From Actinomycetota bacterium (GTDB lineage: Bacteria; Actinomycetota; UBA4738; HRBIN12), in assembly GCA_036280655.1 (NCBI GenBank), contig DASUQI010000037.1, forward strand, positions 8,735 to 72,734: a DNA stretch of 64,000 nucleotides, read 5' to 3'. Positions 9,575-64,000 of the stretch are shown here, in pieces; position 1 is the stretch's first letter, and every line of letters starts with the position of its first letter. The notes below the pieces were generated by a model. It was not told the origin of the DNA. It saw only the letters and a program-made list of their open reading frames with translations, and searched no databases. Made by a program: the position numbers and the translations under genes.

Positions 9575-9580
9575 CGGACC

Positions 9581-9976
9581 TCAGTCCTTGTAGCGGATCA
9601 CACGGCGGGGGCGGATCCACAGGATCTCGCGCTCCTGCCCCGGGGTGTAGCTGTAACCGTGCCCGTCGTACCGGTGCGACAGCTCGTCGATGTGGCGCTC
9701 GGCACGCTCGCCGGTCTCGAACCGCACGACCGTCCCAGTGACCGAGATCCAGTCGTACGCGTCGCCGCCGTTCATGACCGAGACCGCGACCCGCGGGTTG
9801 GCCTCGCAGTTCCGGTGCTTCACGCGCCCCTTCGCCGTGTTGATCAGGACGTGACCGTCCTCGGCGTCGACCCAGGTGATCGTCGCGTGCGGCGACCCGT
9901 TCGGGCCGATCGTCACGAATGTCGCGTAGTTGGTCCCGGTCAGCATCTCGAGGTCCTTCTGCGTGAGCTCAACCAT
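9581..9976 (-). CDS. PPOX-class (pyridoxamine 5'-phosphate oxidase-like) F420-dependent family protein.
   Basis: 131 aa split-barrel: ...ATFVTIGPNGSPHATITWVDAEDGHVLINTAKGRVKHRN.... Confidence 0.7.
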   Translation of the reverse strand: MVELTQKDLEMLTGTNYATFVTIGPNGSPHATITWVDAEDGHVLINTAKGRVKHRNCEANPRVAVSVMNGGDAYDWISVTGTVVRFETGERAERHIDELSHRYDGHGYSYTPGQEREILWIRPRRVIRYKD

Positions 9977-46151: not shown

Positions 46152-46511
46152 TCAGCCCTCGCCGACGACCGTTCGCAGCGCCGCGTCGAACGAGTCCTCG
46201 AACGCGACCACGTCCCGGGCACCGGCCATCGTGAGGACGCCGCGGACCCGCGACCCCTCCGGGGCCACCACGGCGAGCCGCTGCTCGCGCCAGCGGAGGC
46301 GTTCGGCCATCTCGCCCAGCATGCGGATGCCGGCGCTGTCCAGGTAACTCACACCCGTCAGGTCGACGACCATCCCCGCGGCGGTGTTCGGGACCGCGTC
46401 GAGCATGGAACGCTCGAGCGTCGCCGCGTTCGACAGGTCGATCTCGCCGGTGACGCGGGCCACGACCGCGCCGTCCTGCTCCTCCACGGCGAGGTCGGCG
46501 AGCCGGCTCAC
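46152..46511 (-). CDS. STAS-domain anti-sigma-factor antagonist (RsbV/SpoIIAA-like).
   Basis: …VVARVTGEIDLSNAATLERSML…VVDLTGVSYLDSAGIRMLGE…. The GTG start overlaps the upstream gene's stop (GTGA). Confidence 0.78.
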   Translation of the reverse strand: MSRLADLAVEEQDGAVVARVTGEIDLSNAATLERSMLDAVPNTAAGMVVDLTGVSYLDSAGIRMLGEMAERLRWREQRLAVVAPEGSRVRGVLTMAGARDVVAFEDSFDAALRTVVGEG

Positions 46512-49165
46512 GGAGCGACCTTCGTTCGGACCGGTCGACGCATCCGAACCTCCGTGCCCGAGCCGCCCCGGTCGATCTCGACCGATCCCATGCATGCCTC
46601 GATCACGGAAAGGCCTCGCCCACCGCGACCGCGGGGAGCCCGCCAGCGGCCTCGGTCGCGGACGACGACATGGACCTCGTCGTTCGAGATCGCCGCTTCC
46701 AGCTCGACCCAGGCCTTCGACGGACCGTACGCGTGACGGATGCTGTTCGCGGCCGCCTCCGAGGAGGCGAGCACCACGTCGCCCTGCACGTCGGCGGGGA
46801 CGCCGGCCGCGTCGAGCCAGCGCGCGAGGCGTCGACGCATCTCCGACAGCGCGTCGGGCTCAGCGGGGATCCTCAGGCGGAGGTCGCCGGGGGGCGTGGG
46901 CGTGAGGCAGACGGCGAGCAGGGCGATGTCGTCCGAGACGTCGCCCGACACCATCGCCCCCAGGATCCGGTCGCACAGCTCTTCCGGATCGGCGTCGCGG
47001 TTGGCCTCGGCCGCCGCGATCAGCCGTCGCAGGCCCTCGTCGATCGCGAGGTCGTGCCGGTCGATCAGCCCGTCCGTGTAGAGGAGCACCATCTCGCCCG
47101 TCTCGAGCGACGCGGTCGAGGCGCCGAACCTCGCGTGCGGCCCGAAACCGAGCGGCGGGGCGAGCTCCATGTCGAGCAGTCGAGCCCCGCCCGGGCCGAG
47201 CGCGATCGGCGGCGGGTGCCCCGCGCTCACGATCGTGGCGGCGCGGGCCCCGACGTCGAGCGCGACGAGCAGGATCGTGGCCATCTCGTCCTCGGCGACC
47301 TCGTGCATCAAGGCGTCCGTGCGCTCCGCGACCACGGTCGGCGAGTGCCCCTCGAGTGCGTACGCGCGCACGGCCGTCCGCAGCTGCCCCATCAGACTCG
47401 CGGCATCGAGCCCGTGGCCGGCGACGTCGCCGATCACCAGGACGACCCGCTCGCCCCCGAGCGCGATCACGTCGTACCAGTCGCCCCCGGCCGCGACGCC
47501 GAGCTCCGCCGGCATGTACCGGGCCGCGATGAGCACGCCGTCCATCTCCGGGAACGACGACGGGAGCAACGAACGCTGGAGGGTGTCGGCGATCCGGTGC
47601 TCGCGTTCGAACTCGTGGCGTTCGGTCACGTCCTGCACGGTGCCGAACATCCGCACGGGCGTCCCGTCGTCGGCGAGCGAGAACCGCGCCCTCGCGTGGA
47701 GGTGCTTCGTCCGTCCGTCGGGCAGCTCGATCCGGTAATCCACGTCCGGCACGTCGGCGCGGCGCTGCTCGAGCGCGACCTCGGTGGTGCGGCGGATGCG
47801 TGCCCGGTCCGCCTCCGCGACGAATCCGATCGCCTTGTCGAACGTCACCGGGAACGCGCCGGGCTCGACGCCGTGGATCCGGAACATCTCCTCCGACCAC
47901 GACACCTCTCCGCTCGCGAGGTCCCATTCCCACGCCCCGATCCCCGCCACCTCGTGGGCTTCGGCGAGTTGCCGTTCGCTGCGGCGGAGCTTGGACTCGG
48001 CTTCCCGTCGCTCGGCGATCTGCGCGGCGAGCCGCTGGTTCGCGTCGGAGAGCTCCGTCGTCCGTCGTTGCACGCGGGCCTCGAGGTCCGCCGCGCCGCG
48101 TTCGAGGGCCTCCCGCGACCGGGCGCGCTCGGAGACGAGCGCGGCGAGGAAGAACGCGGTGAACGCGACGGTGGCGTTGAAGCCCAGGAGGGTGATCATC
48201 CGGTCGACGAGGTCAGTACCTTGGAATGGTCCCCGGTCCCCGACCGCCGCCCAGGTCGCCGCGCTGGAGACCAGCAGTGCGGCCGGCGCCGCCCCCGACT
48301 GCTCGAAGCGCCACGACGCCCAGCCGACGAACGGCAGCGCGACGAAGAGCAACGAGACGTCGGCCGTCACGGCGAACAGCGCGACGCCCGCGAGGACCGC
48401 GAGCACGACGAACAGCTCCAGCAGTTCGAGCCGGCGGGGCGGAAGGTAGCGGTGGTGGGCTCGGTTCCACGCCACCAGGAGGAACGGCGCGACCACCAGA
48501 ACCCCCATCGAGTCGCCCGCCCACCACACGGACCACGAGGTCCAGAACTCGCCCGATGCGAGCTGATCGGACAAGACGAGCGACGCCGCCCCGATCGTCG
48601 CGCTCAGGAGCATGCTCGAGAGCGCCGCGAACAGGAGCACGACGACGTCGCGGGGCCGGTCGAGCTCGGTCCGGAACCGGGCGCGCCGGAGGATCCACAC
48701 GGTGAGCAGCGGGGCGAGCGTGTTCCCGACCGCAGTGATGACGGCCGCGAACGGCGACTCTGTGATCGGGAGGTTGACGGCCAGAGCGCCGATCGCGATG
48801 CCCGGCCACCACCGGGTGCCGAAGAGCAGCAGCACGGCCACCGCGATACCCGTCGGCGGCCAGAGCGGCGTGATGTTCTCCTCGACGAGCGCGAGGCGGA
48901 GGCTGAAGAAGGCCGCCAGCCCGTAGACGCCCGCGAGCAGCGCGAAGCCCCCGATGGTTCTGAGGGTGCGGCGTCGCGTGTCGTCCTCGGGGCGCACGTT
49001 CCCCGCCGTGCCGTTTCCCCTGTTCGCGTCCACGGTGGCGCCACCATGCCCCAGAACGGCCCGGTGCGCCAACCCTCGCGCGGCCTCACGCCTCCGATGC
49101 GGTTCAGATCGGGACGATCGTCCCGAGGCCGAACGGCGCACCGCCCGACGGTAGGCTGAGGCCAT
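46508..49165 (-). CDS. Multidomain signalling protein: MASE1 membrane sensor, coiled coil, PAS, PP2C (SpoIIE-like) phosphatase, HATPase_c (RsbW-like kinase).
   Basis: MASE1 helices (…ITPLWPPTGIAVAVLLLFG…). PAS (…GIGAWEWDLASGEVSWSEEMFRIHG…). PP2C (…GGDWYDVIALGGERVVLVIGDVAGHGLDAA…LLYTDGL…). HATPase (…EAAANSIRHAY…VHVVVRDRGRW…). The N-terminal start is approximate. Confidence 0.83.
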   Translation of the reverse strand: MASAYRRAVRRSASGRSSRSEPHRRREAARGLAHRAVLGHGGATVDANRGNGTAGNVRPEDDTRRRTLRTIGGFALLAGVYGLAAFFSLRLALVEENITPLWPPTGIAVAVLLLFGTRWWPGIAIGALAVNLPITESPFAAVITAVGNTLAPLLTVWILRRARFRTELDRPRDVVVLLFAALSSMLLSATIGAASLVLSDQLASGEFWTSWSVWWAGDSMGVLVVAPFLLVAWNRAHHRYLPPRRLELLELFVVLAVLAGVALFAVTADVSLLFVALPFVGWASWRFEQSGAAPAALLVSSAATWAAVGDRGPFQGTDLVDRMITLLGFNATVAFTAFFLAALVSERARSREALERGAADLEARVQRRTTELSDANQRLAAQIAERREAESKLRRSERQLAEAHEVAGIGAWEWDLASGEVSWSEEMFRIHGVEPGAFPVTFDKAIGFVAEADRARIRRTTEVALEQRRADVPDVDYRIELPDGRTKHLHARARFSLADDGTPVRMFGTVQDVTERHEFEREHRIADTLQRSLLPSSFPEMDGVLIAARYMPAELGVAAGGDWYDVIALGGERVVLVIGDVAGHGLDAASLMGQLRTAVRAYALEGHSPTVVAERTDALMHEVAEDEMATILLVALDVGARAATIVSAGHPPPIALGPGGARLLDMELAPPLGFGPHARFGASTASLETGEMVLLYTDGLIDRHDLAIDEGLRRLIAAAEANRDADPEELCDRILGAMVSGDVSDDIALLAVCLTPTPPGDLRLRIPAEPDALSEMRRRLARWLDAAGVPADVQGDVVLASSEAAANSIRHAYGPSKAWVELEAAISNDEVHVVVRDRGRWRAPRGRGGRGLSVIEACMGSVEIDRGGSGTEVRMRRPVRTKVAP

Positions 49166-49217
49166 CGAGGCGCCGAGGAGGAACCCATCGACCGACGGGA
49201 CGAGCTCATCCGTGCCG

Positions 49218-50307
49218 GCGTGGAGGTCGCCTCCGAGCACGACCTCTCGGCGATCCTTCGGCGAATCGTCGAGCTCGCGTCCAGCTGACCGACGCGCGGT
49301 ACGGCGCGCTCGGCGTCCTCGGTGCCAACGGCGGGCTGTCGGATTTCATCAGCACCGGCGTGACCGACGAGCAGCGCGCCGCGATCGGCGATCCCCCGCA
49401 CGGCCGGGGGATCCTCGGACTGCTCGTCAGCGAGGCGCGGCCACTGCGCCTGCGCAATATCGCCGATCATCCGAGCTCCGTCGGGTTCCCGCCGAACCAC
49501 CCGCCGATGCGGTCGTTCCTCGGCGCTCCGGTGAGCGCCCGGGGCAGCGTCTTCGGCAACATCTACCTCACCGACAAGCAGGGGGCGGTCGAGTTCGACG
49601 AGGGCGACGAGGAGACCCTGGTCGTGCTGGCGACGCAAGCCGGCGTCGCGATCGAGAACGTCCGACTGCTGGAGGAGACGGAGAGCGCGCAGGAGCGGCT
49701 CCGGGAACTGTCCGTCCTCGAGGACCGGGAGCGGATCGCGCGGGAGTTGCACGACGGCGTGATCCAGTCGCTGTTCGCCGCCGGCATGAGCCTCCAGGGA
49801 GCGGCCGCGATGACGGCGACGCCAACCTCGGCGGGCCGGATCGAAGGCGTGGTCACGGACCTCGACCGGACGATCGGCGATCTCCGCAACTACATCTTCG
49901 GGCTCCGGCCGGGTCCGCTCGCCGACCGCGAGCTCGACCGGGCACTGCGCGACCTCGCGGAGGACTTCCAGGAGCGGACCGGGATCGTGACCGTCGTCGA
50001 GGTGCAGCCGGCGACCGCCGCCGCGATCTCTGCCGAGGCGGGCGACGTGCTCCAGATCGTCCGCGAGGCGCTCTCCAACGTCGGGCGTCACTCCGGGGCG
50101 GAGACGTGCCGGCTCGTGCTCCGGCAGGCGAACGGGATCGCCACGCTCGAGGTCGACGACGACGGCGCGGGCTTCGGTTCGGCGTCAGTGGAAGGCAGCG
50201 GCCTCCCCAACCTCCGTGCACGCGCCGAGCGCATCGGCGCGACGCTCGCGATCGACAGCTCGGGCAACGGGACCACCGTGCGCCTCGAGATCCCCCTTCT
50301 GCGCTGA
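49218..50307 (+). pseudogene. Sensor histidine kinase (GAF + HisKA_3 + HATPase_c, DevS/NarL-partner type) with an apparent frameshift.
   Basis: Frame A encodes …EVASEHDLSAILRRIVELASS* and frame B continues LTDARYGALGVLGANGGLSDFI… (GAF), then …ERIARELHDGVIQSLF… (HisKA_3) and …GSGLPNLRARAERIGATL… (HATPase). One base seems to be missing near 49276 (agc[c]tgacc). Confidence 0.7.
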
Positions 50308-50349
50308 CCGGAAGCCCCGTCCCCGGCGGGACCAGGAGCCCTCCTCCAT

Positions 50350-50860
50350 GTGGCCCCGGTCCGGGACGATCGACGCGTGTTCGTCCGGTACTTCGTCGAG
50401 CTGCCGCTGGCGCACGAGATCGTGGCCGAGCGCCTGGAGGCCGACCCGCAGTCGTGGCTCCCGCCGATCGCCGGATCCACGAGCGAAGACGGCGAGGCCC
50501 TGCTCGCCGAGGTCGGCTTCGGCGAGCGGCCGCGCATCGCGCGACGCGTGGTCGTCGAGACCGGGACCGTCGCCCACCTCGGCGGGACCACGGTCCTGCC
50601 CTTCACCTGGATTGCCTCGAGCGGCGCGGCGCTCTTCCCGCGGCTCGCGGCCGACCTCGAGGTCGCGCCGATCCTGCCGACGCGGACATAGCTCGCGATC
50701 AGCGCGGTGTACGAGCCACCCCTCGGCCTCGTGGGCCGGGCGGCCGACCGCGCGCTCCTGCACCGGGTCGCCGAGGCGACCTTCAAGGACTTCCTCGAGC
50801 GGGTCGCGACCCGGCTCGCCGAACGCGCCGGCGACGAACGGCCGGCGTCCGTGTCTGGGT
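50350..50860 (+). pseudogene. Hypothetical protein interrupted by an in-frame TAG.
   Basis: 113-aa ORF …LEVAPILPTRT, then TAG (about 50689-50691), then the same frame continues for 55 well-formed codons (LAISAVYEPPLGLVGRAADRALLHRVAEATFKDFLERV…) to a stop at 50858-50860. Confidence 0.45.
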
Positions 50861-50863
50861 AGC

Positions 50864-51535
50864 ATGGCGACGATGACGAAGGCGCCGCCGCTCCGCGTGA
50901 TGCTCGTCGACGACCACGAGGTCGTGCGGGACGGCATCCGCGCGATGCTCGAACCCGAGGAGGACGTCGTCGTCACGGCCGAGGCCGGAACGGTCCGCGA
51001 GGCCGTGGACGAGGCCTCGCGCACCCGTCCGGACGTGATCGTGATGGACGTGCGGCTCGCGGACGGCAGCGGGATCGAGGCAACGCGCGAGATCCGCGCG
51101 ATGCTGCCCGAAACGCGCGTGCTGATGCTGACGTCGTTCGCCGACGACGAGGCCCTGTTCCTCGATCATGGCCGGCGCGTCGGGGTACGTGCTCAAGCAG
51201 GTCCGCTCTGGCGAGCTGCTCCGGGCGATCAAGCAGGTGGGCGACGGCCGCTCGCTCCTGGATCCCGAGGTCACCGGCTCGGTCCTCGAGCGTCTGCGGA
51301 AGGGCAAGCACCTCCTGAAGGACGAGCGGCTCGCCAGGCTGTCTCCACAGGAGGAGCGAATCCTCAACATGGTCGCGGAGGGCCGGACGAACAAGGAGAT
51401 CGGCGACGAGCTCGGCCTGGCCGAGACCGTCAAGAACTACGTCTCGAGCATCCGTCTAAGCTCGACGTCGCGAGACGAGCCGAGGCGGCCGCTTATCTGG
51501 CAAGGCACACGACCACGCCGGGCTCGGTCGAGTAG
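50864..51535 (+). pseudogene. NarL/FixJ-family response regulator (REC + LuxR HTH) with two compensating frameshifts.
   Basis: Frame 1: MATMTKAPPLRVMLVDDHEVVRDGIRAM…DVIVMDVRLADGSG…LMLTSFADDEALF. Frame 2 (about 51169-51458): MAGASGYVLKQ…LSPQEERILNMVAEGRTNKEIGDELGLAETVKNYVSSI. Then back to frame 1: …SKLDVARRAEAAAYLARH*. Confidence 0.75.
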
Positions 51536-51579
51536 CCGGCAGAGCGTTCTCCGCGATCGCCTTCGTATGCTCGGTTGTC

Positions 51580-52248
51580 GTGTCGAGACTCGCCAATGTT
51601 GCGGTTCCCTGCTCTGTTGCCGTCCTCCTGCTCGCGGCCTGCACGGGCGAGGACGCGACGGGACCCGCCGCGTCCGGTTCCGATCGCTCCTCGGCATCAC
51701 CATCGCCGACGCCGTCCCCCTCGGAAGGGTCCTCGCGGAGGGGCACCAGCCCGATCTTCACCACCGCCAACGAGTTCGTCCTGGCGCCAGAGGACACGCC
51801 GTACCCGTACACCAGGCCGATCTCGCCGCGGACGCGGACCCCCCTCGACGGGACGTACCTGCGGATCCTCACGATCGAGGACGTGGACGGCCTGCTGCCG
51901 TTCCGGTGCCTGCGATGTCCCCCCTTCTTCCTGAACGCCGGCGTGAGCACGATCGCCTTCCACAGGGGCAGCTACTGGCTGAACCACCAGCTCTCGGGGT
52001 TCAAGTCGCTCGGGATGTATACGGTCGAACGGAACCGGGTCACGTTCTTCAACGACCCGTGGTGTCCGCAGGACCGGGGCACCTACCGGTGGGACGTCCG
52101 CGATGGCGCGCTCTTCTTCGAGCCGGTCTCCGGCACGTGCGTCTACGAGGAGGCGCGGGCCAAGGACCTCACGAAGAGCCCCTGGACGAAGATCAAGCCC
52201 TGCGTCTACCTGATCGAGCACCTCTGGCCCGGCCCGATCGCCTGCTGA
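51580..52248 (+). CDS. Cys-rich lipoprotein (hypothetical).
   Basis: Signal peptide with lipobox (VAVLLLAAC), a Pro/Ser-rich linker, and eight Cys in the mature domain. Confidence 0.6.
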   Translation: MSRLANVAVPCSVAVLLLAACTGEDATGPAASGSDRSSASPSPTPSPSEGSSRRGTSPIFTTANEFVLAPEDTPYPYTRPISPRTRTPLDGTYLRILTIEDVDGLLPFRCLRCPPFFLNAGVSTIAFHRGSYWLNHQLSGFKSLGMYTVERNRVTFFNDPWCPQDRGTYRWDVRDGALFFEPVSGTCVYEEARAKDLTKSPWTKIKPCVYLIEHLWPGPIAC

Positions 52249-52393
52249 GGGCCAGCTCGGGCGACACACTGCGGATCCGTTGCCGGCGGGAGGCGTAACA
52301 CGTCGCCAGAGCGAGCGGCGCGGCCCACGGAGACCTCCACCGTTCACCTAGAGTTCATCGGTCGATGACGCGATCCGAACCCGACCCGATGCC

Positions 52394-52894
52394 GTGAAGG
52401 AAGCGGCTCCCATCCTTCGAGGGCTGACCGTCGAGGACGCCGCAGCATGTGACGCGATCGTCGCCGGCCTGCCGTATCACTTCGGGAACGAGCGCGGCGT
52501 CGCCGCGTGCGCGGAGGCCGTTCGTAGCCAGGAAGGGTTCGTCGCGGCGATCGACGAGCGGGTCGTCGGCTTCCTCACGTTCGAGGCTCACTCGGCCGAG
52601 AGCGTTGAGATCACGTGGATGGCCGTGCACGCCGAGCATCGTCGGCGTGGCATCGGACGTTCGATGATCGAGCACGCATCCGCCAACCTGGCCGCGCGGG
52701 GCGTCCGGTTCGTCTCCGTCCTCACGCTTGGACCCTCCGTCCCTGAGGACGTCCCGGACGGGTACGACGGAACCCGGCGCTTCTATCGAGCGGTTGGGTT
52801 CACGCCCTTGCGCGAGCTGGATCTGCGCTCCTGGGACGACGAGTCGGCGCTGCTCCTGGTCCGCGCACTCGGTCCGAGCCACACGATCGAGTGA
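52394..52894 (+). CDS. GNAT-family N-acetyltransferase.
   Basis: …WMAVHAEHRRRGIGRSMIEHA… acetyl-CoA binding motif (R/Q-x-x-G-x-G/A). Confidence 0.8.
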   Translation: MKEAAPILRGLTVEDAAACDAIVAGLPYHFGNERGVAACAEAVRSQEGFVAAIDERVVGFLTFEAHSAESVEITWMAVHAEHRRRGIGRSMIEHASANLAARGVRFVSVLTLGPSVPEDVPDGYDGTRRFYRAVGFTPLRELDLRSWDDESALLLVRALGPSHTIE

Positions 52895-53412
52895 TCGATC
52901 GGTTGCGTAGATCATGGACAGCCGGTCGTGTTCCCTTGGCTCGACGGACAGGAGCCTTAGGTACCGCCGATCGGTCACGCTTCCGAACAGAGGCTTCCCT
53001 CCACCAAGGAGCACGGGGTTCACGATGAGCCGGATGTCATCGATCAACCCGATGTTGATCATGCTAGAGACGAGCAGCGCTCCTCCAACCACGTAGATGT
53101 TCTTGCCGGAGTGCTCTTTCAGCTTCCGGATCTCTCGAGGTCCGGCGCGACGCGTGAGTTACTCCACGCAACATCCATCGGCTTGCGAGAGACGACGATG
53201 TGGGGCCTCCTGGACGCCCACGTCGCATATTCGATCTCCTTGGGCGTCGCCGGCTTCCCGCTCAAAGGCAGCGAGGCTTCGGGGTCTTCCAAGACCGCCG
53301 TCCAGTACTCCTCCCAGCCCGGATGGAAGGACCGGTGGGTTGGCGAAGCATCCTCGCGATGCCGGGCGGATCTGAGCTTGCCCTCTGGCAAGCGAAGCGC
53401 TGACGAGGGCAT
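52895..53412 (-). pseudogene. Dihydrofolate reductase-family (RibD_C-like) gene fragmented by a frameshift.
   Basis: The N-terminal part is in ORF 53119..53412 (…GWEEYWTAV…IVVSRKP…). The C-terminal part is at the start of ORF 52355..53092 (MVGGALLVSSMINIGLIDDIRLIVNPVLLGGGKPLF…YATDR) in another frame. An intact paralogue is at 62302..62907. Confidence 0.5.
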
Positions 53413-53419
53413 CGTCGCG

Positions 53420-53464
53420 TGGTGGGCGCTAGAGGAATTGAACCTCTGACCTCTTCCGCGTCAA
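53420..53464 (-). repeat. 45-bp partial copy of the tRNA-Val(GAC) 3' half (island attR-type direct repeat).
   Basis: tggtgggcgctagaggaattgaacctctgacctcttccgcgtcaa is identical to 60288..60332, the 3' end through the anticodon loop of the intact tRNA. Confidence 0.85.
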
Positions 53465-53667
53465 AGAACGAACAGGCAACGCTGTGACCAGCGCTCTCGC
53501 AGTTCAGTGGCCGTTGGAGGAGCCACAGATGTACCGCTGGGTACAGCCTGGTCCCGTCGGCTCCTGACCAGATATTGACCGACAGTCCCTCGCTCGATCG
53601 GATGGCTCCTGAGCGGGCACATCATTCCCGGGTCACAGGAGACGCGAAGTGTTCCTCCACCGTCCGA

Positions 53668-54147
53668 CTAGCCTCGTAGGGCGGCGAGGCGAGGCGAGAG
53701 CATTCCAAAGAGCGTCGAAACCAGCTGCATACCGTTAAGGATGATCGCCAGCATCGCCAACGTGCGACCGAGACGGTCCGAGGCTCGGACCTCACCCCAG
53801 ATCGCGAAGATCAGCCCGACGGCATATCCCGCCGGCATGAGGATCAGCCCGGCCGCCCCGGAAGGGACCGGGGCAATCCATCCCCAGAACCATCCCAGGA
53901 GGAGCGAGGCCCAAACTATCGGTGGGACTGCCGGACGCCTGTCCGTCTCGGAGGGTTTGAAAGGAGCGGGAACGCGCTCGGAGGTCGGCAGAACGCCGTT
54001 CGGTCCCCACACATCGCCCAACCGCGAGGCCCCGACCGGCGCCCTTGGCGCAGCCCACGCGGGAGCCTCGGCGGGATTCTTGTGGCATGTGGGACAGACG
54101 GTCGCCTCGTCCCGCAGTTCCTCGGCGCAGTGCGGACACACCTTCAC
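53668..54147 (-). CDS. Zinc-ribbon (CPHC…CPTC) N-terminal domain protein with C-terminal TM helices.
   Basis: MKVCPHCAEELRDEATVCPTCHK…, then a Pro-rich linker and two or three hydrophobic helices. Confidence 0.5.
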   Translation of the reverse strand: MKVCPHCAEELRDEATVCPTCHKNPAEAPAWAAPRAPVGASRLGDVWGPNGVLPTSERVPAPFKPSETDRRPAVPPIVWASLLLGWFWGWIAPVPSGAAGLILMPAGYAVGLIFAIWGEVRASDRLGRTLAMLAIILNGMQLVSTLFGMLSPRLAALRG

Positions 54148-54204
54148 GCTGATTGTTTCGGCACGCGGTCGCGGTTGCCTTACGGAAGGGTCCGCCGCCG
54201 GCGG

Positions 54205-54783
54205 TTAGGCCGGCTCGCCGATGAAGCGACGGTAGCGGTCGCGGCACTCAACTGCCGGCTCGCCAGATCGGAACAGGAATGAGACGGGCGAGAGCTCGCC
54301 GCTTCTGTCGTGGCGCTTCAACACCACGGCGTACCGCTCCTCCTGGGAAGTCTCTAACTCGCGGATTGGGTCGATCAGCGCGTCGGCCACCTCGAGACCG
54401 TCTTCGTCGACGATCACGGCATGCGTGATGCTCTCGCGGGGGAGGCGTGCGAATTCGGCCTCGGGATCGTGGTTCCAGTTATCGAGCAGCACGAAGTCCT
54501 GAGCCGTAACCGCGACCAGAATCGAGCGGAACTCTCCGTCGACCCGAGCGAGGCCCGAGAAGAACGTGGCCTCCGATGCAATCGCTCGGAGTTTCTCGGT
54601 CCGACGCATAGCCGCCTCATGGCGGAGGGCCTCATCCTCCGTGAGGGATGCCATCGCCGCGCGGGCGTCATCGAGCTCGAGGTCGTGCAGGCCACCCCAA
54701 ATCACGTACGCGACGCCGGCACGTCTCGCACCTGGGAGAACATTGCCCAAGGCTGACCCGATCGCCTCAATCGCGTCGCTCAT
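54205..54783 (-). CDS. Hypothetical protein (192 aa).
   Basis: Long ORF with island-type codon usage. No recognisable motif. Confidence 0.4.
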   Translation of the reverse strand: MSDAIEAIGSALGNVLPGARRAGVAYVIWGGLHDLELDDARAAMASLTEDEALRHEAAMRRTEKLRAIASEATFFSGLARVDGEFRSILVAVTAQDFVLLDNWNHDPEAEFARLPRESITHAVIVDEDGLEVADALIDPIRELETSQEERYAVVLKRHDRSGELSPVSFLFRSGEPAVECRDRYRRFIGEPA

Positions 54784-55216
54784 GCGTCCCCTTCATGCGG
54801 ACCTGCCTTGCGCCTATCGGAAATCATCGGCTGAGCCCCCTCCCGGCATGAATAGGCGCGTGGTCAACGACGTCCATCGTGCTTCGTTACCAAGCCGGGT
54901 GTCGCAGCTTGCGCCCGATTGAGCTGATCCACGGCTACGGGAGCGGCACCTGAGCGACTGCGAGGAGGACAGGACACGGCGGGCCGTCCTGATCGGGATG
55001 CTACGGGAGATGGATGCCGAGAGTTGGCGGCTACTCCCCGTCTGACCGCACCCAACGAGCAACCGTGTCGGCCAACCCCTTCGTCGGCCACCATGTCACC
55101 ATGAACAGTCGACCGGTTGAGAACCTGCCGATGACCCACCATCCGAAGTGCTTACCGCGTCGGAAGGTGGCGTTGCGGTTACTCATGGGCCTCCTTCGGG
55201 TCGCCTAGGATCGCGA

Positions 55217-55684
55217 TCAGATCGCCGACGACTTCATCGAGCGGTCGGCTTGCATCCAGTTCATGCGTGCAGCCCTTCTGAGGAGCGGCTCGACCTCAGC
55301 GAGGTCCGCCAAGATCATCGCTCGTTCCGACGGAGTTCTCCCGTTGGTGTTCGTCGTTCTGCGTGCAACCCGGTCAAGGATCACGTCAGCAGGGGCGCTG
55401 AGCAGGACGACCGCGTCGAAGCGATCGCAGAACTTCGACTGGTTCCACACGCACCCTTCAACGAAGAGCGAGCGACCATCATCGGAGTCCAGTAGCTCGG
55501 TGATCTTCTCCTCGACCCAGAGCCACTCCCCGAGGTGCAACTCGTCTGAGGGCTCAAGATACGCGCGATACTCGCTCCAGCCCGGATCATCGGTGTCTAC
55601 GACGCGATAACCGCGACGGGCAAGCTCGGCGAGCGCCGACGACTTGCCGGTTCCCGACATACCAGTCACCAAGACCCTCGACAC
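55217..55684 (-). CDS. P-loop NTPase (AAA_33 / small kinase-like).
   Basis: MSRVLVTGMSGTGKSSALAELARRGYRVVDTDD… Walker A at the N-terminus. Confidence 0.68.
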   Translation of the reverse strand: MSRVLVTGMSGTGKSSALAELARRGYRVVDTDDPGWSEYRAYLEPSDELHLGEWLWVEEKITELLDSDDGRSLFVEGCVWNQSKFCDRFDAVVLLSAPADVILDRVARRTTNTNGRTPSERAMILADLAEVEPLLRRAARMNWMQADRSMKSSAI

Positions 55685-55813
55685 AGTGGAACGCTACCGA
55701 GTGTCAAGCGGCGGCGTCGCGGGCGCGGCCTCCGCCCCAAAGTCAGCGGCGGGATGGGCGCGTGAAGTCGGTCACGCTTCGGGAACGTACATCTGACGGG
55801 ACGTCAAGGCGCC

Positions 55814-56260
55814 TCAGGCAGTCAGGACGGGATCAGGTCGCCGCCTATCACCGCTGCCACTTGGGGTTGCGGCGAGTTGATTCGTCGTCGCCACCAACCA
55901 GTTGGTACCAACCACCGACGGGGTGTGACGCGCCGCCTCCCCGAGGTTTGTCGGTCGAGCGACGCCCTTCCATACATGAAGCGTCACCGTGGCTGACCCG
56001 ACCTCACACAGTGCGGCGTCGTGGTCCGCCGAAATCTGCAAGTCGATTGGGTAGACACGCGAGCATCCGATGCCGTGTGCGTCGATATCCCCTGCCAGAG
56101 CCTGGGTCGAGGAGTAGGAGGGAGCCGTCTCATCCCGGTCACCGGGCGCGAGACCCAGGGCGACAATGACCACGAGGCCAACCGCCACACCCACGACGCG
56201 CCTGACCATCCCGCCCAAAGGATGGCACCCAGCTAACTCTTCGTGCTGGCCGCGTGACAC
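55814..56260 (-). CDS. Hypothetical secreted/membrane protein.
   Basis: Internal start MVRRVVGVAVGLVVIVALGLAP is signal-peptide-like. No other motif. Confidence 0.38.
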   Translation of the reverse strand: MSRGQHEELAGCHPLGGMVRRVVGVAVGLVVIVALGLAPGDRDETAPSYSSTQALAGDIDAHGIGCSRVYPIDLQISADHDAALCEVGSATVTLHVWKGVARPTNLGEAARHTPSVVGTNWLVATTNQLAATPSGSGDRRRPDPVLTA

Positions 56261-57150
56261 CGGTCACGCGTCCGTACATGTTGTCGCACCGGGCTGCTAC
56301 GGCCTGAGCTACCCAGGGCCGTGTCGGACCCCAGCGCTACCTGTCGATTCTCGGCGTGACAGGGGGACTAGCGATGCGATGCCCGCGGGGCTCAGAACGC
56401 CGAAACGTCCGACGAGTCAGGCGGATCCGCGTGAGACACCCGCGCTAGGAGTCGTCCTCAATCAGGAGCGCCGGACCTGCAGCATCCTCCATGTTCGGCG
56501 GGATGGCATCCAACTGTGCGTACAGATGAGTTGCTGATCGACTGCGAGGAGGACCGAGTCGTCCGGGCGGTGCTGATCGGGATGCTGCTGGAGGGCGATA
56601 GGCCGCCGTCCCTAGGGCCGCCCGGGACTTCAACGCACCTCGGGGACGGTCAAAGGAGTGAAGCGGTCAAGCGCCGGGACTAGCGACCCTATGGAGCCAC
56701 CCCCAGCCCGAGCTCTTGACACGCTCAACGACCTCGCTCACATGATCTACAACCAACGCCTACCCCGCGGATCGAGGAAGTAGTTCAGGGCCGCGCTCAA
56801 ATTGAGTCCCGGTTGTCCTCCGCGAACGCGGTTCCCGTCTCGCGGAGGCGCCTTGAATCCTCCCTGACCGACACCGCAGCCTCGCGCACGGCGACGGCTT
56901 CTTCGCGAAGGTTGGCCAACCGCGCCCGGAGACGCGCTGCAGACTCGCGGAGACTGGCAACCGATTCCACGGCCGCTCCTCTCGAACAGGTCGAAAGGGC
57001 GACCGGTTAGGCGTGCGCCAACCGTCCAGACGACGTTACGAGCACCGTGTCACACTGCGAGCGACTGACGCAAGGCGTCTCGTGAGAGTAGCCCCCGACG
57101 CGTTCCCATCCTGAGAGGGAGGGGTAGGGCCAAGGGCGTTAGCGCGGATC

Positions 57151-57339
57151 CTAGCCACCTCGGGTCCGGGGGGGCTCGCTGGCGAGGTGACCATACGCCT
57201 CAGCGAGATGGAGGATCACCCTTGCAATCTCCTCGTTCTCCGCCTGGGCCGTGAGCGTTGTGATCTTCTTGGCGATCTCCTGGCGGGCCGTCGCTGCCGC
57301 AGCTGCGGCCCTGATCTGAGCGTCGGTATGCGACGTCAT
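57151..57339 (-). CDS. Hypothetical small helical protein (62 aa).
   Basis: Ala-rich with a helical pattern. Weak evidence. Confidence 0.25.
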   Translation of the reverse strand: MTSHTDAQIRAAAAAATARQEIAKKITTLTAQAENEEIARVILHLAEAYGHLASEPPRTRGG

Positions 57340-57519
57340 TTTGGTATCACCCCCGCGACTAGATGCTACTCGTCCACGTACGCAACCCGCCAGACGCAGG
57401 CTCGTCTGCTACTGGGGCGCGAGACGCGGCAGTGGTTCAGTGACCAGCTCATCCAACCGTGTTCCTGTTAGAGTCCTCCGGTAGCATTTCCGGCTCGGTT
57501 CGCATCGAGCGACCGTCCG

Positions 57520-57756
57520 ATGGCCATCGCTCCTCTGTCGTCGGCCCTTGTTCCCTACGGATCGACGAACAGGAGGGAGCACGATGGCCACCGCTCTCCG
57601 CGAGTTGGATTGGCGTTTTTCTGCCCGATCTGTGGGATTCCCCTCGAACGGTTCGACTTCGACAAGGCTTCCGAGGATTACTCCTGCCCGTTCTGCTGCT
57701 CGCAGCAGCGACCCTCACGGGTTGCGGCTCGCGCCGGGTGGGAGAACCCGGATTAG
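57520..57756 (+). CDS. Small zinc-ribbon protein (CPICG…CPFCC).
   Basis: 78 aa. Two CxxC pairs spaced for a zinc ribbon. Confidence 0.35.
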   Translation: MAIAPLSSALVPYGSTNRREHDGHRSPRVGLAFFCPICGIPLERFDFDKASEDYSCPFCCSQQRPSRVAARAGWENPD

Positions 57757-57951
57757 GTGGCGCATCGGATGAGCACGCACATCTACGGTTCACCACTGAA
57801 GGAAGGACAGGTCGAGACGTATCCTGAGAAACGAACGTGCTCGGAGGAAGGGTGCTCGACCCGACTCTCCATCTACAACCCGTCGAAGCAGTTCTGTTGG
57901 CTCCACGAATGGGTCGGTCCGCGACGTGGCGACTCACCTACTCGGTCATAG
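57757..57951 (+). CDS. Small Cys/His-rich protein (64 aa).
   Basis: …CSEEGCSTRLSIYNPSKQFCWLHEW… a zinc-finger-like C-x4-C…C-x2-H arrangement. Its start abuts the stop of the previous ORF. Confidence 0.35.
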   Translation: MAHRMSTHIYGSPLKEGQVETYPEKRTCSEEGCSTRLSIYNPSKQFCWLHEWVGPRRGDSPTRS

Positions 57952-58651
57952 GGACCCTGTGTCCGCGGAAGGACTCTCGCCGAAGAGCGTTAGAGCACCT
58001 GTAGGCCAGCTCAATTCACTCTGTTCATGTGGCCACTCGGAGTTCGTTCATTAGCGACCGCCGAGGACGTCCCTGCCTCTTCAACAGATGTCCCTGCCAG
58101 CGGCTCTGTCCCATCCACAAGGTGCTTATGCCAGCGGCGCGATCGCACGCAGTGTGATCGAGTGCGAGGACCGAGTCGTCCGGGCGGTGTTGGTCGGGAT
58201 GCTGCGGGGGACCGACCGTTAAGAGCGGATACGCTCTTCTATCTCAGCCAGAGATTCAGGGTGAAGCGGCCCCCACAGTCTCGTTTACTCGGAGTCATCA
58301 AAATGCGTGATCGGTGACCCTTCCACTTACGGCTGGAACGTCATCAGCGACCTTCCGGGCTGGACACCTACAAGGTCCGCGACTGCCGCCGAACTCTCGT
58401 CTCCCGGCCTCCCCTGACGACCCCTCACCCGTCACAACGGGGCCGACCTCCACCGGGCCAACCTCGACGGGACGAACCGCGACAGGTCCAACCTCGACGG
58501 GGCCGACCGCGACAGGGAGCACGTAGCACGACCTTCCCTGCCCCCTTGGGTCATCACCTCGAGCAGCCGCTCCTGATCGACGCCGAGGAGGCCGGACGCT
58601 CCGGGCGGTTCTGGTCGAGATGCTGCGGGATGACGGAGCGGGAGTAGCGAC

Positions 58652-58984
58652 CTAACCCCGAGGGTCGGTTCGAGTGGCTACCTCCGCAGGCGTCCCCTCC
58701 CGTTTGGCCACGAGGACGAATCGGTCGTTCTCCTCAACGACTGCCTCGACGTCCTGAATGACATGCTCGTGGACAACACAGAACTGGCGAGGGTCGTTCC
58801 GGACCCGCTCGTACTCGTCCTTCATCACCGCAATAACCTCGTCGCACCTCTCGTATCCGCACTCGCAGGCGATGTGCATGAACGAGCTGTCGGGAAGGGA
58901 TTCGCGGGTCTGGTCGATCTGTTCGTTGATCCCCCTCGCAACCGCCTCGTTCTTCGCGATCCGTTCCTCCCTGAAGCCCATCAC
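58652..58984 (-). CDS. Small CxCG-motif protein, paralogue 1.
   Basis: 110 aa: …HIACECGYERCDEVIAVMKDEYERVRNDPRQFCVVHEHV…. It is paralogous to 59438..59770. Confidence 0.5.
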   Translation of the reverse strand: MMGFREERIAKNEAVARGINEQIDQTRESLPDSSFMHIACECGYERCDEVIAVMKDEYERVRNDPRQFCVVHEHVIQDVEAVVEENDRFVLVAKREGTPAEVATRTDPRG

Positions 58985-59210
58985 GGTTCTCCCAACTCTT
59001 TCCTGGGTGCCAACCCAACGGATACCCGAAGTCGCGTGCCGGGAACCCCGAGCTGCTCATCGACCGCGAGGAGGGACCGGACGCTGCGGGCGGTGCTGGT
59101 CGGGATGCTGCGGGAAGCGGTCCGCTAGGCTGCCAGGCGGTCGATCTCGAACCACACAGTCTTACGTCCCTCGAGGGAGCGCCCCCAGCGGTCGGCCAAC
59201 TTATCCACGA

Positions 59211-59480
59211 CTACCAAGCCGAGTGGGGTCGATCCTTGTGCCCGTCCAAGTTGAGCCGGTCGAAGGTGAACCAAGGCCCACCGTCTACGACCGTCACGCG
59301 GATCACGGCGTCCCTCGCCTCGAGCTGCAGACCGATCTGGCCGTCTGCCTCAGGGCCGCCATGTCGAGCCGCGTTGTCGACGATCTCGGAGACCATCAGG
59401 ACGACCTCGTCGGAGCGGGCGGCCGGGAGCCGGTCGCTCACGAAATCCGCCGTGATCTTGCGGGCAATCCCCGGAGCGGT
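59211..59480 (-). CDS. RsbW-like anti-sigma factor / Ser-protein kinase (HATPase_c). Start is approximate.
   Basis: …VVLMVSEIVDNAARHG…IRVTVVDGGPWF…. The N-terminal part of the track ORF overlaps the neighbouring gene in another frame. Confidence 0.62.
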   Translation of the reverse strand, partial: TAPGIARKITADFVSDRLPAARSDEVVLMVSEIVDNAARHGGPEADGQIGLQLEARDAVIRVTVVDGGPWFTFDRLNLDGHKDRPHSAW

Positions 59481-59770
59481 CTGCTCATAAGGCAGCCGGT
59501 GCTCCACATCATGACGCTGATCACCGAGTCGATCTCCGGGTTCTCGTGATCGAGTGCGAGCGCGAAGCGGGTGGCCTCGCTCCGGATACCCTCGTACTCC
59601 GCTCGGGTGAGTCGGATCGGATCGGAGCATCGCACGTCTCCGCACTCACAGAGGTACGTGTCCATCGCACGCTCGAGCCCCTCACGACCGTCGGTGTCGT
59701 CCTCCGTCCACTCGTTCATCTCGCGGAAGATCGTCTGGTTGATGGCCTCCTGAGCTCGATAGTCAGCCAT
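59438..59770 (-). CDS. Small CxCG-motif protein, paralogue 2.
   Basis: Internal start MADYRAQEAINQTIFREMNEW…YLCECGDVRCSDPIRLTRAEYEGIRSEATRFALALDHE… shares the CECG-x2-RC…EYE…HE pattern with 58652..58984. Confidence 0.5.
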   Translation of the reverse strand: MADYRAQEAINQTIFREMNEWTEDDTDGREGLERAMDTYLCECGDVRCSDPIRLTRAEYEGIRSEATRFALALDHENPEIDSVISVMMWSTGCLMSRPLRGLPARSRRIS

Positions 59771-60113
59771 CGGGATGCCCGTCGAGGTCGGCCGATGAGC
59801 GCGACGAACCAGGAGCACGCTGCGTGAAGCGGGCGAGGAGCCGCACCCCTTCTCGCTCATCGACGACGTACTCGGTCGCGGTCACCTGGAGGATCTTCCT
59901 GAGCTGGTCGCTCGCGCCAATCAGGGCCAGGCGATGTCCGTTGTCCTTCGCACGGCGCTGTGCGTTCAAGAACGTGCGCAGCCCCGTGGAATCGACGAAG
60001 GTCAGGTCTCGAAGATCGAGGAGCACCCCCCCGACGTCGTCCTGCTCGACCCGCGTCAGGTGCTGTTCGAGCGTCGGAGCGGTTGCTAGGTCGAGTTCGC
60101 CCCAAAGGGCCAA
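59763..60113 (-). CDS. STAS-domain anti-sigma-factor antagonist (RsbV-like).
   Basis: …GGVLLDLRDLTFVDSTGLRTFLNAQRRA…HRLALIGASDQLRKIL…. Confidence 0.72.
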   Translation of the reverse strand: MALWGELDLATAPTLEQHLTRVEQDDVGGVLLDLRDLTFVDSTGLRTFLNAQRRAKDNGHRLALIGASDQLRKILQVTATEYVVDEREGVRLLARFTQRAPGSSRSSADLDGHPDG

Positions 60114-60287
60114 TCGGACGACCTCGTTCCTGCGGTCGTCATAGGATGTCGAACAAGGAGCGGGACGGGACCCCCATGTTGGCTCCCCTCTGCGTGTCGG
60201 CGCTCTCTCGCCGATCGGGTGGTGAACCAGAAGTTGGGGTTCCCACGCGCCAGACCGTGGGTCCGGGTCCGGCGCGAACAGTCTACC

Positions 60288-60362
60288 TGGTGGGCGCTAG
60301 AGGAATTGAACCTCTGACCTCTTCCGCGTCAAGGAAGCGCTCTACCCCTGAGCTAAGCGCCC
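60288..60362 (-). tRNA. tRNA-Val (anticodon GAC), with CCA encoded. This is the island integration target.
   Basis: Reverse complement: GGGCGCTTAGCTCAGGGGTAGAGCGCTTCCTTGACGCGGAAGAGGTCAGAGGTTCAATTCCTCTAGCGCCCACCA. The anticodon stem is CTTCC/GGAAG with loop UU-GAC-GC. Confidence 0.88.
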
Positions 60363-60389
60363 GAGATCCGGCATCGTACCGCCGGGCCG

Positions 60390-60460
60390 AGGCGGGGACC
60401 GGAATTGAACCGGTGTAGAGGGTTTTGCAGACCCTTGCCTAACCACTCGGCCACCCCGCC
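60390..60460 (-). tRNA. tRNA-Cys (anticodon GCA).
   Basis: Reverse complement: GGCGGGGTGGCCGAGTGGTTAAGGCAAGGGTCTGCAAAACCCTCTACACCGGTTCAATTCCGGTCCCCGCCT. It has a 7-bp acceptor stem, U8, an anticodon stem AGGGT/ACCCT with loop CU-GCA-AA, and U73 discriminator. Confidence 0.85.
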
Positions 60461-60524
60461 GTGCGCGGCAGGTGCCGCGGCAGGAAAGTGTAGCGGCCCC
60501 TGCCACTGATGGGCCGGGCTCAGG

Positions 60525-61331
60525 TCATGCCCCGAAGAACCGTTCGAGCTCGGGGGCCAGCACCTTCGCGTCGACCATGTGCCACTGCCCCTCGAGGATG
60601 GCCCGCTCCGCGTTCGGGACCGCAGCCGCGATCTCCTCTGCCGCTCGGCCGAAGAAGTCGACCGGCACCTCTCCCATGTAGTTCGGGTCTGGTGCGACAT
60701 CGCCGGTGACCACGAGCGTGGGCTGCTTGATCGTGGCCAGCCGCTCCCCCGGGGGCGGTCCGTCCCCGATGCACGCCGCGTCGTAGGCGAGCGTGTGCGC
60801 CAGCGCCACAGCTCCCGCCCAGTGCTCGGACGCCTTCGCCCCCTCGATGATCTCGTCGCTGGTACCGACCATCCGCATGAACAGCTCGACCGCCTCGCTC
60901 CGTTGGCCGGCCGCGAGCGCAGCAGTCAGCTCCTCGACGTAGGTTCGCCACGCCTTCTGGAAGACCTCATCCGTCTGGTACGGCACCTCGTACACGGCGA
61001 GCCGGTCCGCGGCAACGCCCGCCGCTGCGGCCTCAAGCACGAGGGCGCCGCCGGAGGAGACGCCGTACAGGTGCGCCGACCCGCCGGCCTCGGCGATCAG
61101 CGCGGCGATGTCCTCGATCTCGCGCTCGAGCGCGTAGGGCTGCGTGTCACTGCTCTCGGACCTGCCGCGTCGGTCGTAGTTGTACGTGGTGAACGAGCTC
61201 GCCAGCTCGGCGGAGAGCGGGGCGTTCTCCGACCGGTCGACGAGGCCTCCGCCCACGAGGATGACGGCGGGCCCGCTCCCCTGAGGTTCGAACGCGATCG
61301 ACGTCCCGTCCTTCGAGATCACCCGGTCCAT
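60525..61331 (-). CDS. Alpha/beta hydrolase-fold protein.
   Basis: Internal start MDRVISKDGTSIAFEPQGSGPAVILVGG…HLYGVSSGG (GxSxG). The N-terminal 58 aa of the track ORF are low-complexity read-through. Confidence 0.8.
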   Translation of the reverse strand: MDRVISKDGTSIAFEPQGSGPAVILVGGGLVDRSENAPLSAELASSFTTYNYDRRGRSESSDTQPYALEREIEDIAALIAEAGGSAHLYGVSSGGALVLEAAAAGVAADRLAVYEVPYQTDEVFQKAWRTYVEELTAALAAGQRSEAVELFMRMVGTSDEIIEGAKASEHWAGAVALAHTLAYDAACIGDGPPPGERLATIKQPTLVVTGDVAPDPNYMGEVPVDFFGRAAEEIAAAVPNAERAILEGQWHMVDAKVLAPELERFFGA

Positions 61332-62301: not shown

Positions 62302-62907
62302 CTAGCCGAACGAGCCCGTGACGATCTCGCCGGCGGGCTCGTACGTGGCGATCAGCACGCCGGTCGTCGAGACCCTGCTGTCGACGAGCTTCAGCGCGCC
62401 CGGGAGGGTGCCCTCCGCGAACAGGCGCTTACCCGACCCGATCACCACGGGGAAGACCATCAGGCGGAATCGGTCGACGAGTTCGTGGGCGAGGAGCGTC
62501 TGGGTCAGGTTCGCGCTGCCGTGCACCTGCAGCTCGGGCCCGTCCTCTTCCTTCAGCTTCGCAAGCCCCTCCGCCGCGTCGCCCTCGATCAGGACGGAGT
62601 TGCTCCACCCGAGCGTGGGCCGGCCTCGGGACGCGACGTACTTCGTGGCCTCGTTGAACACCTTGCCGCCGGCCTCCTCCGGCGCGGTCGGCCAGTAGGC
62701 GGCGAAGATGTCGTAGGTCCTGCGCCCGAGCACCATCGCGAACGGCGTGCTCGTCGCCTCGGCCATGTAGCTGTCCACCACGTCGTCCCAGAGGTTGACG
62801 GACCACCCTCCGAGCGCGAATCCGGTCTCGGCATCCTCGTCCGGCCCGCCAGGCGCCTGCATCACCCCGTCGAGGGTCAGGAACGTGCTGACGATCAGCT
62901 CTCGCAT
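62302..62907 (-). CDS. Dihydrofolate reductase-family protein (RibD C-terminal domain-like).
   Basis: MRELIVSTFLTLDGVMQAPGG…LGRRTYDIFAAYWP…VHGSANLTQTLLAHELVDRFRLMVFPVVIGSGKRLF…. Confidence 0.85.
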   Translation of the reverse strand: MRELIVSTFLTLDGVMQAPGGPDEDAETGFALGGWSVNLWDDVVDSYMAEATSTPFAMVLGRRTYDIFAAYWPTAPEEAGGKVFNEATKYVASRGRPTLGWSNSVLIEGDAAEGLAKLKEEDGPELQVHGSANLTQTLLAHELVDRFRLMVFPVVIGSGKRLFAEGTLPGALKLVDSRVSTTGVLIATYEPAGEIVTGSFG

Positions 62908-62937
62908 CGTCGCTCCTTCGGATTGTGGGACCCGGAG

Positions 62938-63993: not shown

Positions 63994-64000
63994 CGGCTGG

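Follow-up and report, generated by a model that had tools for sequence, protein, structure and literature searches.

The sequence analysed here, referred to as the window, is a stretch of 64,000 nucleotides (nt) from an Actinomycetota bacterium (NCBI GenBank assembly GCA_036280655.1, contig DASUQI010000037.1), with a GC content of 69.9%. Three-frame translation of the region from 49.1 to 51.6 kb shows three successive genes on the plus strand: a sensor histidine kinase, a conserved middle gene and a response regulator of the NarL/DevR type. Every one of the three is interrupted. The genes and the lesions found at this two-component locus are collected in Table 1, and the analysis below concerns whether these lesions are real and what the module was before it acquired them.

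Table 1. Genes and lesions of the two-component locus (window positions; aa, amino acids).
Feature	Position	Strand	Basis or context
Sensor histidine kinase pseudogene (haem-type GAF, HisKA_3, HATPase_c)	49187..50307	+	Pfam of intact allele P0001
Extra C, intergenic, divergent region 5' of kinase	49122		window haplotype only; also in L012-L015
1-nt deletion, GCC GTC to GCGTC, kinase frameshift	49278..49279	+	alignment to intact alleles
Compensating indel pair, -A 49816/17 and +G 49830	49816..49830	+	HisKA_3 hairpin loop
Middle gene, pseudogene in window; conserved 161-aa protein, predicted START/SRPBCC-like helix-grip fold	50377..50862	+	
In-frame TAG for invariant CAG (Gln105)	50689..50691	+	relatives all CAG
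NarL/DevR-type response regulator pseudogene (REC and LuxR-type helix-turn-helix)	50864..51535	+	
2-nt deletion, CTGTTCGCCTCG to CTGTTCCTCG	51160..51162 (~51161)	+	between beta5 and alpha5 of REC
3-nt deletion, one AGA copy in GAGAAGACC	51423..51426 (~51424)	+	DNA-binding domain
1-nt deletion, ATCCTGTCT to ATCCGTCT	51453..51454	+	alignment

The lesions were placed by base-level alignment of the window to intact alleles and relatives. The comparator loci carry L numbers. L003 (ENA) belongs to a sister species with approximately 85% nucleotide identity to the window, and its kinase, 161-aa middle gene and 213-aa regulator are intact. L001 (ENA, farmland soil) is 99.46% identical to the window over 13.8 kb and is intact apart from the 2-nt deletion in the regulator. 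L004-L009 and L033-L039 (ENA, JGI and Logan) are 98.7-99% identical, and L012-L032, mostly Logan per-run assemblies, represent the window-type haplotype. Open frames of 362, 161 and 225 aa for the kinase, middle gene and regulator are present in L033 and L034. A search with the repaired kinase protein returned a 100%-identical NCBI protein of 340 aa and a 97%-identical intact protein of 362 aa. The GTDB species representatives scanned with the kinase gave a best match of 61% identity and no conspecific genome. The order of kinase, middle gene and regulator is kept in the nearest GTDB species-level relatives, in which the kinase is 49-61% identical and the regulator 79-85% identical; the latter points to strong long-term constraint.

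The kinase start annotated in intact alleles is GTG 49220. The intact protein P0001 matches GAF at residues 6-146, HisKA_3 from residue 170 (E 2e-15) and HATPase_c (E 4e-8) in Pfam. Frame A of the window kinase reads ...LSAILRRIVELASS and then meets TGA at 49286-49288, and frame B continues as LTDARYGALG... to the stop at 50305-50307. The frame change is due to the 1-nt deletion; the lost base is retained in L001, L002, L004-L009, L012, L033 and L034, and it is lost also in L013, L014 and L015. The resulting 340-aa product matches GAF only from model position 19 on, with HisKA_3 and HATPase_c still there. The compensating pair further downstream recodes five residues, turning TDDANL into TATPTS, in a loop that is variable among orthologues. 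This pair is common to the window, L012-L017 and L020-L022. Sub-lineages carry damage of their own: a 77-nt deletion at 49700-49776 in L015 and L020 removes the H-box His codon (49750-49752), and L012 lacks, through a 6-nt in-frame deletion at 49503-49508, the Pro-Met directly after the putative haem-ligand His.

It has also been noted that eleven codons (PIDRRDELIRAG, within 49176-49222) lie in frame 5' of the GTG, beginning at ATC 49187. The window and the 85%-identical L003 differ at four third positions only in these codons, which therefore look translated. There is no ATG, GTG or TTG ahead of them in the window or in L003. The ATC is located 5 nt past a GGAGGA motif (AGGAAGG in L003), and more distant kinase homologues start with MAPIDRR or MVDRR. 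On this reading of the nucleotides, the kinase may start at a non-canonical AUC at 49187.

The middle gene has a start changed from ATG to GTG at 50377 and the in-frame TAG. The codon replaced by the TAG specifies a Gln that is invariant in 40 homologues, and the stop removes the C-terminal third of the protein, including the most conserved motif of the family (RVAEATLKDFL). Past the TAG, the frame remains open (LAISAVYEPPLG...) up to a second TAG at 50860-50862. At NCBI, the window's open reading frame (ORF) is split into HEX5903034.1, of 104 aa, and HEX5903035.1, of 51 aa. The exact 113-aa truncated product of the window is found on 17 Logan contigs, and the ten that were fetched come from ten runs. 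The gene has been hit differently in other lineages, with a +G frameshift at approximately 50591 in L004-L008. Three missense changes are clustered within 27 nt in L004-L006, L033 and L034, at 50723, 50734 and 50749 (L to P, G120 to C and R125 to G). G120 and R125 are invariant in the 40 homologues, yet they are changed in these loci.

More than 1,264 homologues of the middle protein were found, and it has no Pfam or NCBIfam match at E<=0.01. Its AlphaFold model (pLDDT 82, pTM 0.80) has the beta-alpha-alpha-beta6-alpha order of the helix-grip fold. Foldseek returned 115 PDB matches at E<=1e-3, and the top 50 listed are nearly all of the START/Bet v 1/cyclase-type superfamily with a probability of approximately 1, at TM-scores of just 0.35-0.56. 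The protein is thus predicted from the model to resemble the START/SRPBCC/Bet v 1 superfamily, distantly.

Intact alleles of the regulator encode 225 aa with Response_reg and GerE domains, both of which are found in L003, L004 and L033. The window regulator is read as MATMTK...FADDEALF in one frame, MAGASGYVLK...NYVSSI in a second frame and SKLDVARR...GSVE in the first frame again. The 2-nt deletion is present in the window, L001, L023, L026, L031 and L032 and is not found in L003, L004-L006 or L033-L038. The 3-nt deletion drops the Lys of L-A-E-K-T-V-K-N-Y, within the conserved E-K-T-V-K-N motif, and is common to the window, L023, L026, L031 and L032. The 1-nt deletion is common to the window, L023-L026, L031 and L032, and the ancestral T is kept in L001, L004-L006, L027-L030 and L033-L036. 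Together with the 2-nt deletion, it puts the last 26 regulator codons back in the original frame. As the shifts of -2 and -1 sum to -3, the window regulator is one uninterrupted ORF of 223 codons with 98 central codons out of frame. In Pfam, the 223-aa product matches Response_reg at positions 1-83/111 and does not match GerE, positions 2-41/57 of which are found in another frame; no homology was found for the 98 out-of-frame codons in this search of the window products. Exact look-ups of window products recovered the lipoprotein and the acetyltransferase encoded downstream. They found no record of the window's regulator protein at NCBI, which fits the pseudogene call. The gene caller applied to L001 predicts a 123-aa GerE protein from the ATG of MAGASGYVLK, and no ribosome-binding motif was seen ahead of this internal ATG when the sequence was read by eye.

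A sequence-only reading of the locus, made before these comparisons, had reported four independent lesions: a -1 frame change in the kinase near 49276, a stop codon at about 50689 and two shifts in the regulator near 51169 and 51458, with the segment MAGASGYVLK…NYVSSI out of frame. All four are present. The kinase shift is the deletion at 49278/49279, the TAG lies at 50689-50691, the out-of-frame segment is seen in the three-frame translation, and the two regulator shifts are the deletions at approximately 51161 and at 51453/51454, a few bases off the positions first given. The count and the word independent were not borne out, as the window holds at least eight lesions and not all of them are private or independent. 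Those beyond the original four are the extra C at 49122, the 49816/49830 pair, the GTG start at 50377 and the 3-nt deletion at approximately 51424. At the lesion sites, conspecific loci and L003 keep their frames open, which is the outcome of the comparison with orthologous loci that had been proposed.

As Logan contigs are assembled run by run, recurrence of a lesion across runs serves as a test for artefacts that does not require the raw reads. All the lesions are repeated in independent per-run assemblies, as expected from the pseudogenisation that had been preferred over sequencing error. Two 5.3-kb contigs, L013 (from SRR36622072) and L014 (from SRR35668503), show no indel relative to the window across 47350-50720, and each joins the 49122 insertion, the 49278 frameshift, the compensating pair and the TAG on one contig. 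L016, L018 and L022 are 100% identical to the window over approximately 49.8-51.15 kb. L031 (SRR27341225) is 100% identical over 50799-52278 and contains all three regulator deletions, which are present in L023, L026 and L032 as well. On L015-L019, the TAG is found together with two window-specific sites, 50850 and 50853, and L031 ties these two sites to the three regulator deletions. L013 and L014, L015-L019 and L031 therefore tile the locus through window-specific markers, and the lesions most simply lie on one haplotype. The lesions are real mutations, with assembly error effectively excluded as far as assembled contigs allow.

The distribution of indels shows that the decay is specific to this locus. 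There is no indel in approximately 10.5 kb of flanking coding sequence between the window and L001, L004-L006, L033 and L034. Across seven long haplotypes, all seven coding indel events fall in the 2.3-kb module and none in these flanks, for which simple arithmetic gives a chance of 0.178^7, or about 6e-6. Among 37 short-read loci, the indel polymorphisms between 39.2 and 53.3 kb are confined to the module or to intergenic DNA. Ten events were counted in the module, including the 6-nt deletion of L012 and the 77-nt deletion of L015 and L020, against zero for ten other coding genes. When the 64 kb was scanned with a crude codon-position hidden-Markov model, frame switches without a nearby stop turned up at the regulator lesions only; two further flags reflect boundary imprecision at ordinary gene junctions. 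Ten same-frame neighbouring ORFs searched with Pfam are separate genes, nine of which match a domain essentially end to end (LemA, M48 peptidase, DUF3048, PdxS, PdxT, RibD_C, glyoxalase, PNPOx and RarA). The tenth, a cyclase-like ORF at 63424-63999 that is cut by the window edge, has a weak and partial match. Overlapping same-strand ORFs at 2.4-5, 7.6-9.6, 11.7-13.8, 25-27, 34.7-36.2 and 60.5-62.3 kb, considered as candidate frameshifts, are all adjacent genes, each with a start and a stop of its own. Rfam and tRNA scans found three tRNAs only, all outside the locus. The neighbouring 10 kb is intact, as is the 64-kb window as far as tested by frame scan, Pfam and indel census, in agreement with the earlier statement that the other genes of the window are undamaged.

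Shared and private lesions allow a partial order of events. In the flanks, the window and L001 diverge by 0.11-0.55%, compared with 0.4-1.6% to the other clade, and the two are sisters. As L001 shares it, the 2-nt regulator deletion is the oldest disabling lesion on the window lineage. The compensating pair is older than the 49278 frameshift, since L012 (JGI, window-type) has the pair without the frameshift. The restored frame suggests that the kinase was still under selection when the pair arose.

The damage extends beyond the window haplotype. All lineages from which the three genes were recovered carry at least one hit in the module. The hits differ by lineage, with the regulator deletion in one clade, the middle-gene frameshift and the three missense changes in the other clade, and kinase deletions in sub-lineages. 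The decay looks species-wide, with the window as the most eroded haplotype. A McDonald-Kreitman-type count, using seven haplotypes with L003 as outgroup, gave a Pn/Ps of 23/17 against a Dn/Ds of 87/195 in the module (odds ratio 3.0, p=0.0013). In the flanks the corresponding figures are 36/71 and 407/765 (p=0.92), and the ratios of polymorphism in module and flanks differ with p=0.013. This excess of amino-acid polymorphism points to a relaxation, within the species, of the purifying selection acting on the module. The window branch, estimated from three-point distances, measures 0.90% in the locus versus 0.25% in the flanks, i.e., it is 3.6 times longer in the locus.

The intact form of the module can be compared with known systems. 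The GAF domain aligns with the haem-binding GAF-A of Mycobacterium tuberculosis DosT (2VZW, E 3e-44) and DevS (E approximately 1e-38; 2Y8H also aligned). In DosS, the proximal ligand is His149 and the distal residue is Tyr171 (PMC4082495). The His of HPPMR and the Tyr of FGNIYLTDK in the present kinase are 22 residues apart, the same spacing. Among solved structures, DevR of M. tuberculosis (3C3W, E 4e-53) comes closest to the intact regulator, ten orders of magnitude ahead of the next match, VraR, which marks similarity and does not by itself make the two orthologous; the regulator's NCBIfam matches (MadR, MctR and NarL) are all under their cut-offs. The kinase core is also like that of DesK (3GIG, E 1e-16), and the regulator combines REC with a LuxR-type helix-turn-helix as in NarL-family systems. 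From these resemblances we infer that the module is related to, and worked like, the mycobacterial DosS/DosT-DosR system.

There are several differences from these systems. Unlike DosS and DosT, the kinase has a single GAF and no GAF-B, and two-GAF relatives of approximately 533 aa align over 69% of it. A START/SRPBCC-like gene separates the kinase gene from that of the regulator, the module belongs to an uncultured soil Actinomycetota, and all three module genes are disrupted in the window. DesK-DesR takes its input through membrane helices, in place of which the present kinase has a soluble haem-type GAF. According to PMC4779234, which cites Fallow et al. (2010) for it, M. tuberculosis of the Beijing lineage carries a natural frameshift in dosT. 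Like the present case, that is a lineage-specific inactivation in nature of a DosT-type kinase, fixed in a widespread, successful lineage. The Beijing case as cited there involves one lesion in one of two redundant kinases with the regulator kept, whereas at the present locus all three genes, the accessory one included, are hit and the lesions differ by lineage.

The explanation that accounts best for these observations, and which is very probably correct, is that a cytoplasmic two-component module for haem-based gas or redox sensing has here been eroded to a remnant, with real lesions and selection relaxed across the species. In the intact form, the single-GAF kinase would bind haem through the conserved proximal His and distal Tyr. 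The state of the haem would control autophosphorylation on the H-box His of HisKA_3, as in DosT, and the phosphate would be passed to the Asp of the DevR-like, NarL-family regulator, which would bind DNA by its LuxR-type helix-turn-helix. The START/SRPBCC-like protein of 161 aa, encoded between the two, would presumably be co-transcribed with them. On the window lineage, the 2-nt deletion would have uncoupled the receiver from the DNA-binding domain at an early stage. Later, the 1-nt deletion would have cost the kinase the first helix of its GAF domain, a nonsense codon would have arisen at the invariant Gln of the middle gene, and two more deletions would have followed in the regulator. With these changes in place, none of the signalling steps of the module should be completable in the window. 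The lesions appear to have become fixed in a widespread haplotype, with independent damage in other lineages of the species. Haem binding, signalling chemistry, co-transcription and the actual loss of function are deduced here from sequence.

Several observations weigh against this explanation. No one independent contig covers all the lesions, and their linkage depends on overlapping tiles from different runs together with the window contig. NCBI still annotates the 340-aa kinase, and a truncated product could be made. The window-specific changes number 9 nonsynonymous and 10 synonymous in the locus (pN/pS 0.33) and 8 and 16 in the flanks (0.18), which do not differ significantly (Fisher p=0.53); for this reason, window-branch dN/dS was dropped as a proof of neutrality. 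At six sites of the locus, the window is identical to the outgroup L003 and unlike all conspecifics. Part of the extra divergence may thus reflect an older or recombined allele rather than drift after inactivation. The selection counts are also simple, with per-site classification and no correction for multiple hits. It is chiefly the disruptive lesions and the pattern of polymorphism, and not window-branch dN/dS, that support pseudogenisation.

A first alternative is that the remnant is partly functional. The truncated kinase, restarting downstream, would signal to another regulator, or a protein like the 123-aa helix-turn-helix product predicted in L001 would act as a constitutive regulator. 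The HisKA_3 and HATPase_c core, intact in the window and annotated as a protein, is compatible with the former, as is a window-branch pN/pS below 1, and the gene prediction in L001 with the latter. Such a role is improbable, however, since the -3 and -1 deletions have destroyed the window's helix-turn-helix as well, the internal ATG has no apparent ribosome-binding motif, and sub-lineages have lost the H-box or two residues beside the haem His. Moreover, none of the three genes is free of indels or of the excess in amino-acid polymorphism.

A second alternative, which is quite improbable, holds that the contig is a chimera stitched from co-occurring strains, in which case no one genome would carry all the lesions and each strain might keep at least part of the module working. 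Logan contigs often start at 49777 or stop at 51153, which are exactly the edges of the 77-nt and 2-nt deletions. This implies that soil samples contain several haplotypes of this locus side by side. Indeed, SRR35668503 alone yields both L014, of the window type, and L029, which is ancestral at 51454. Against this reading, the overlaps described above link the lesions to one another, and each segment on its own holds a disabling lesion in a different gene.

The sequence-only reading had named a locally low-quality assembly as its alternative; on that view, the indels and the stop would be spurious. The window does come from a metagenome-assembled genome (MAG), and noisy assemblies of the species do exist: L010 (contig_21766_segment0) and L011 (tig00002071), whose record names suggest long-read assemblers, contain spurious frameshifts. 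These two assemblies have 33-45 gap openings per 5-6 kb and shatter all genes, including the 841-aa neighbour, rather than one locus. Base-for-base recurrence of each lesion in several runs and the neighbouring 10 kb free of indels are not what a local artefact would give, and this explanation is most improbable. The kinase fragments P0133, P0137 and P0138 were considered as independent pseudogenisation and rejected, as they derive from L010 and L011, in which every gene is fragmented. They share 90% clusters with real proteins, and such fragments can mimic pseudogenes. Phase variation was likewise rejected, as no indel lies in a long homopolymer or repeat, the longest being a run of three Gs at the clade-A insertion and the two-copy AGA.

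Finally, programmed recoding, in which ribosomal frameshifting and read-through of the TAG would restore full-length proteins, has a negligible probability: the two regulator shifts do sum to three bases and leave an open frame of 223 codons, but conspecific and orthologous genes read straight through every site, no slippery motif is seen at the shift sites by inspection, the 98 out-of-frame codons are without homology, and TAG is a genuine stop that ends both the middle gene (50860-50862) and the regulator (51533-51535).

A number of further observations concern the surroundings of the locus. The kinase and the MASE1-PP2C gene are separated in L003 by a Flavodoxin_5 gene (9152-9646 of that record), which no haplotype of the window's species has; in these haplotypes the two genes are approximately 185 nt apart. 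On the 3' side, a C-terminal remnant of a RibD_C-type reductase is located on the minus strand at approximately 52895-53178 and differs from other haplotypes by a 1-nt indel at 53134; an intact RibD_C paralogue is present at 62305-62937. Some gene callers stretch the remnant to a 274-aa ORF antisense to a GNAT acetyltransferase gene (52394-52894). An apparent replacement of RibD_C by GNAT in relatives was rejected, since the same DNA had only been given a different, antisense gene call.

The region at 52900-60540 (approximately 7.6 kb) has a GC content of 64-65% versus 70%, a weak codon-position signal and few genes, and it ends at tRNA-Val(GAC) and tRNA-Cys(GCA) (60288-60460). Compared with L004 and L005, the region is rearranged, with blast pieces out of order, and it is probably a variable island directly 3' of the decaying module. 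The minus strand of this region encodes two paralogous small Cys-rich proteins (58652-58984 and 59438-59860) with a common CECG...C motif. Adjoining them, also on the minus strand, are genes that by eye resemble an anti-sigma-type small ATPase (59211-59645) and a STAS-type antagonist (59763-60113). The first partner-switching set of the window consists of a MASE1-PAS-PP2C-HATPase_c_2 fusion (46508-49033) and a STAS gene (46152-46511), and the genes at 58652-60113 have, by eye, the look of a second.

The decay of signalling modules is well known, and the present case is a further, well-documented instance that will not surprise a specialist. In Mycobacterium leprae, two-component pseudogenes have accumulated several frameshifts and stops once the signalling genes were no longer needed. 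Gene decay in that species is genome-wide, unlike the locus-specific decay described here. In practical terms, frameshifts in a short-read MAG can be tested without the raw reads, by seeking the same truncated products and lesions in per-run assemblies. The current annotation overstates this genome, as the NCBI entries include a "GAF domain-containing sensor histidine kinase" of 340 aa and two fragments labelled hypothetical. The organism is not to be credited with a working DosS/DosT–DevR-type hypoxia or NO response from this locus.

The nested haplotypes, from open frames through single-lesion to multi-lesion forms, provide a natural series for the decay of a two-component system after one partner fails. 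It is conceivable, although unlikely, that this series reflects recurrent independent loss across a cosmopolitan soil species, in which the loss of DosS/DosT-type oxygen and NO sensing was favoured by selection and not merely tolerated. If so, the nested haplotypes would record the order of the collapse, with the regulator lost first and the sensor and the accessory gene next.

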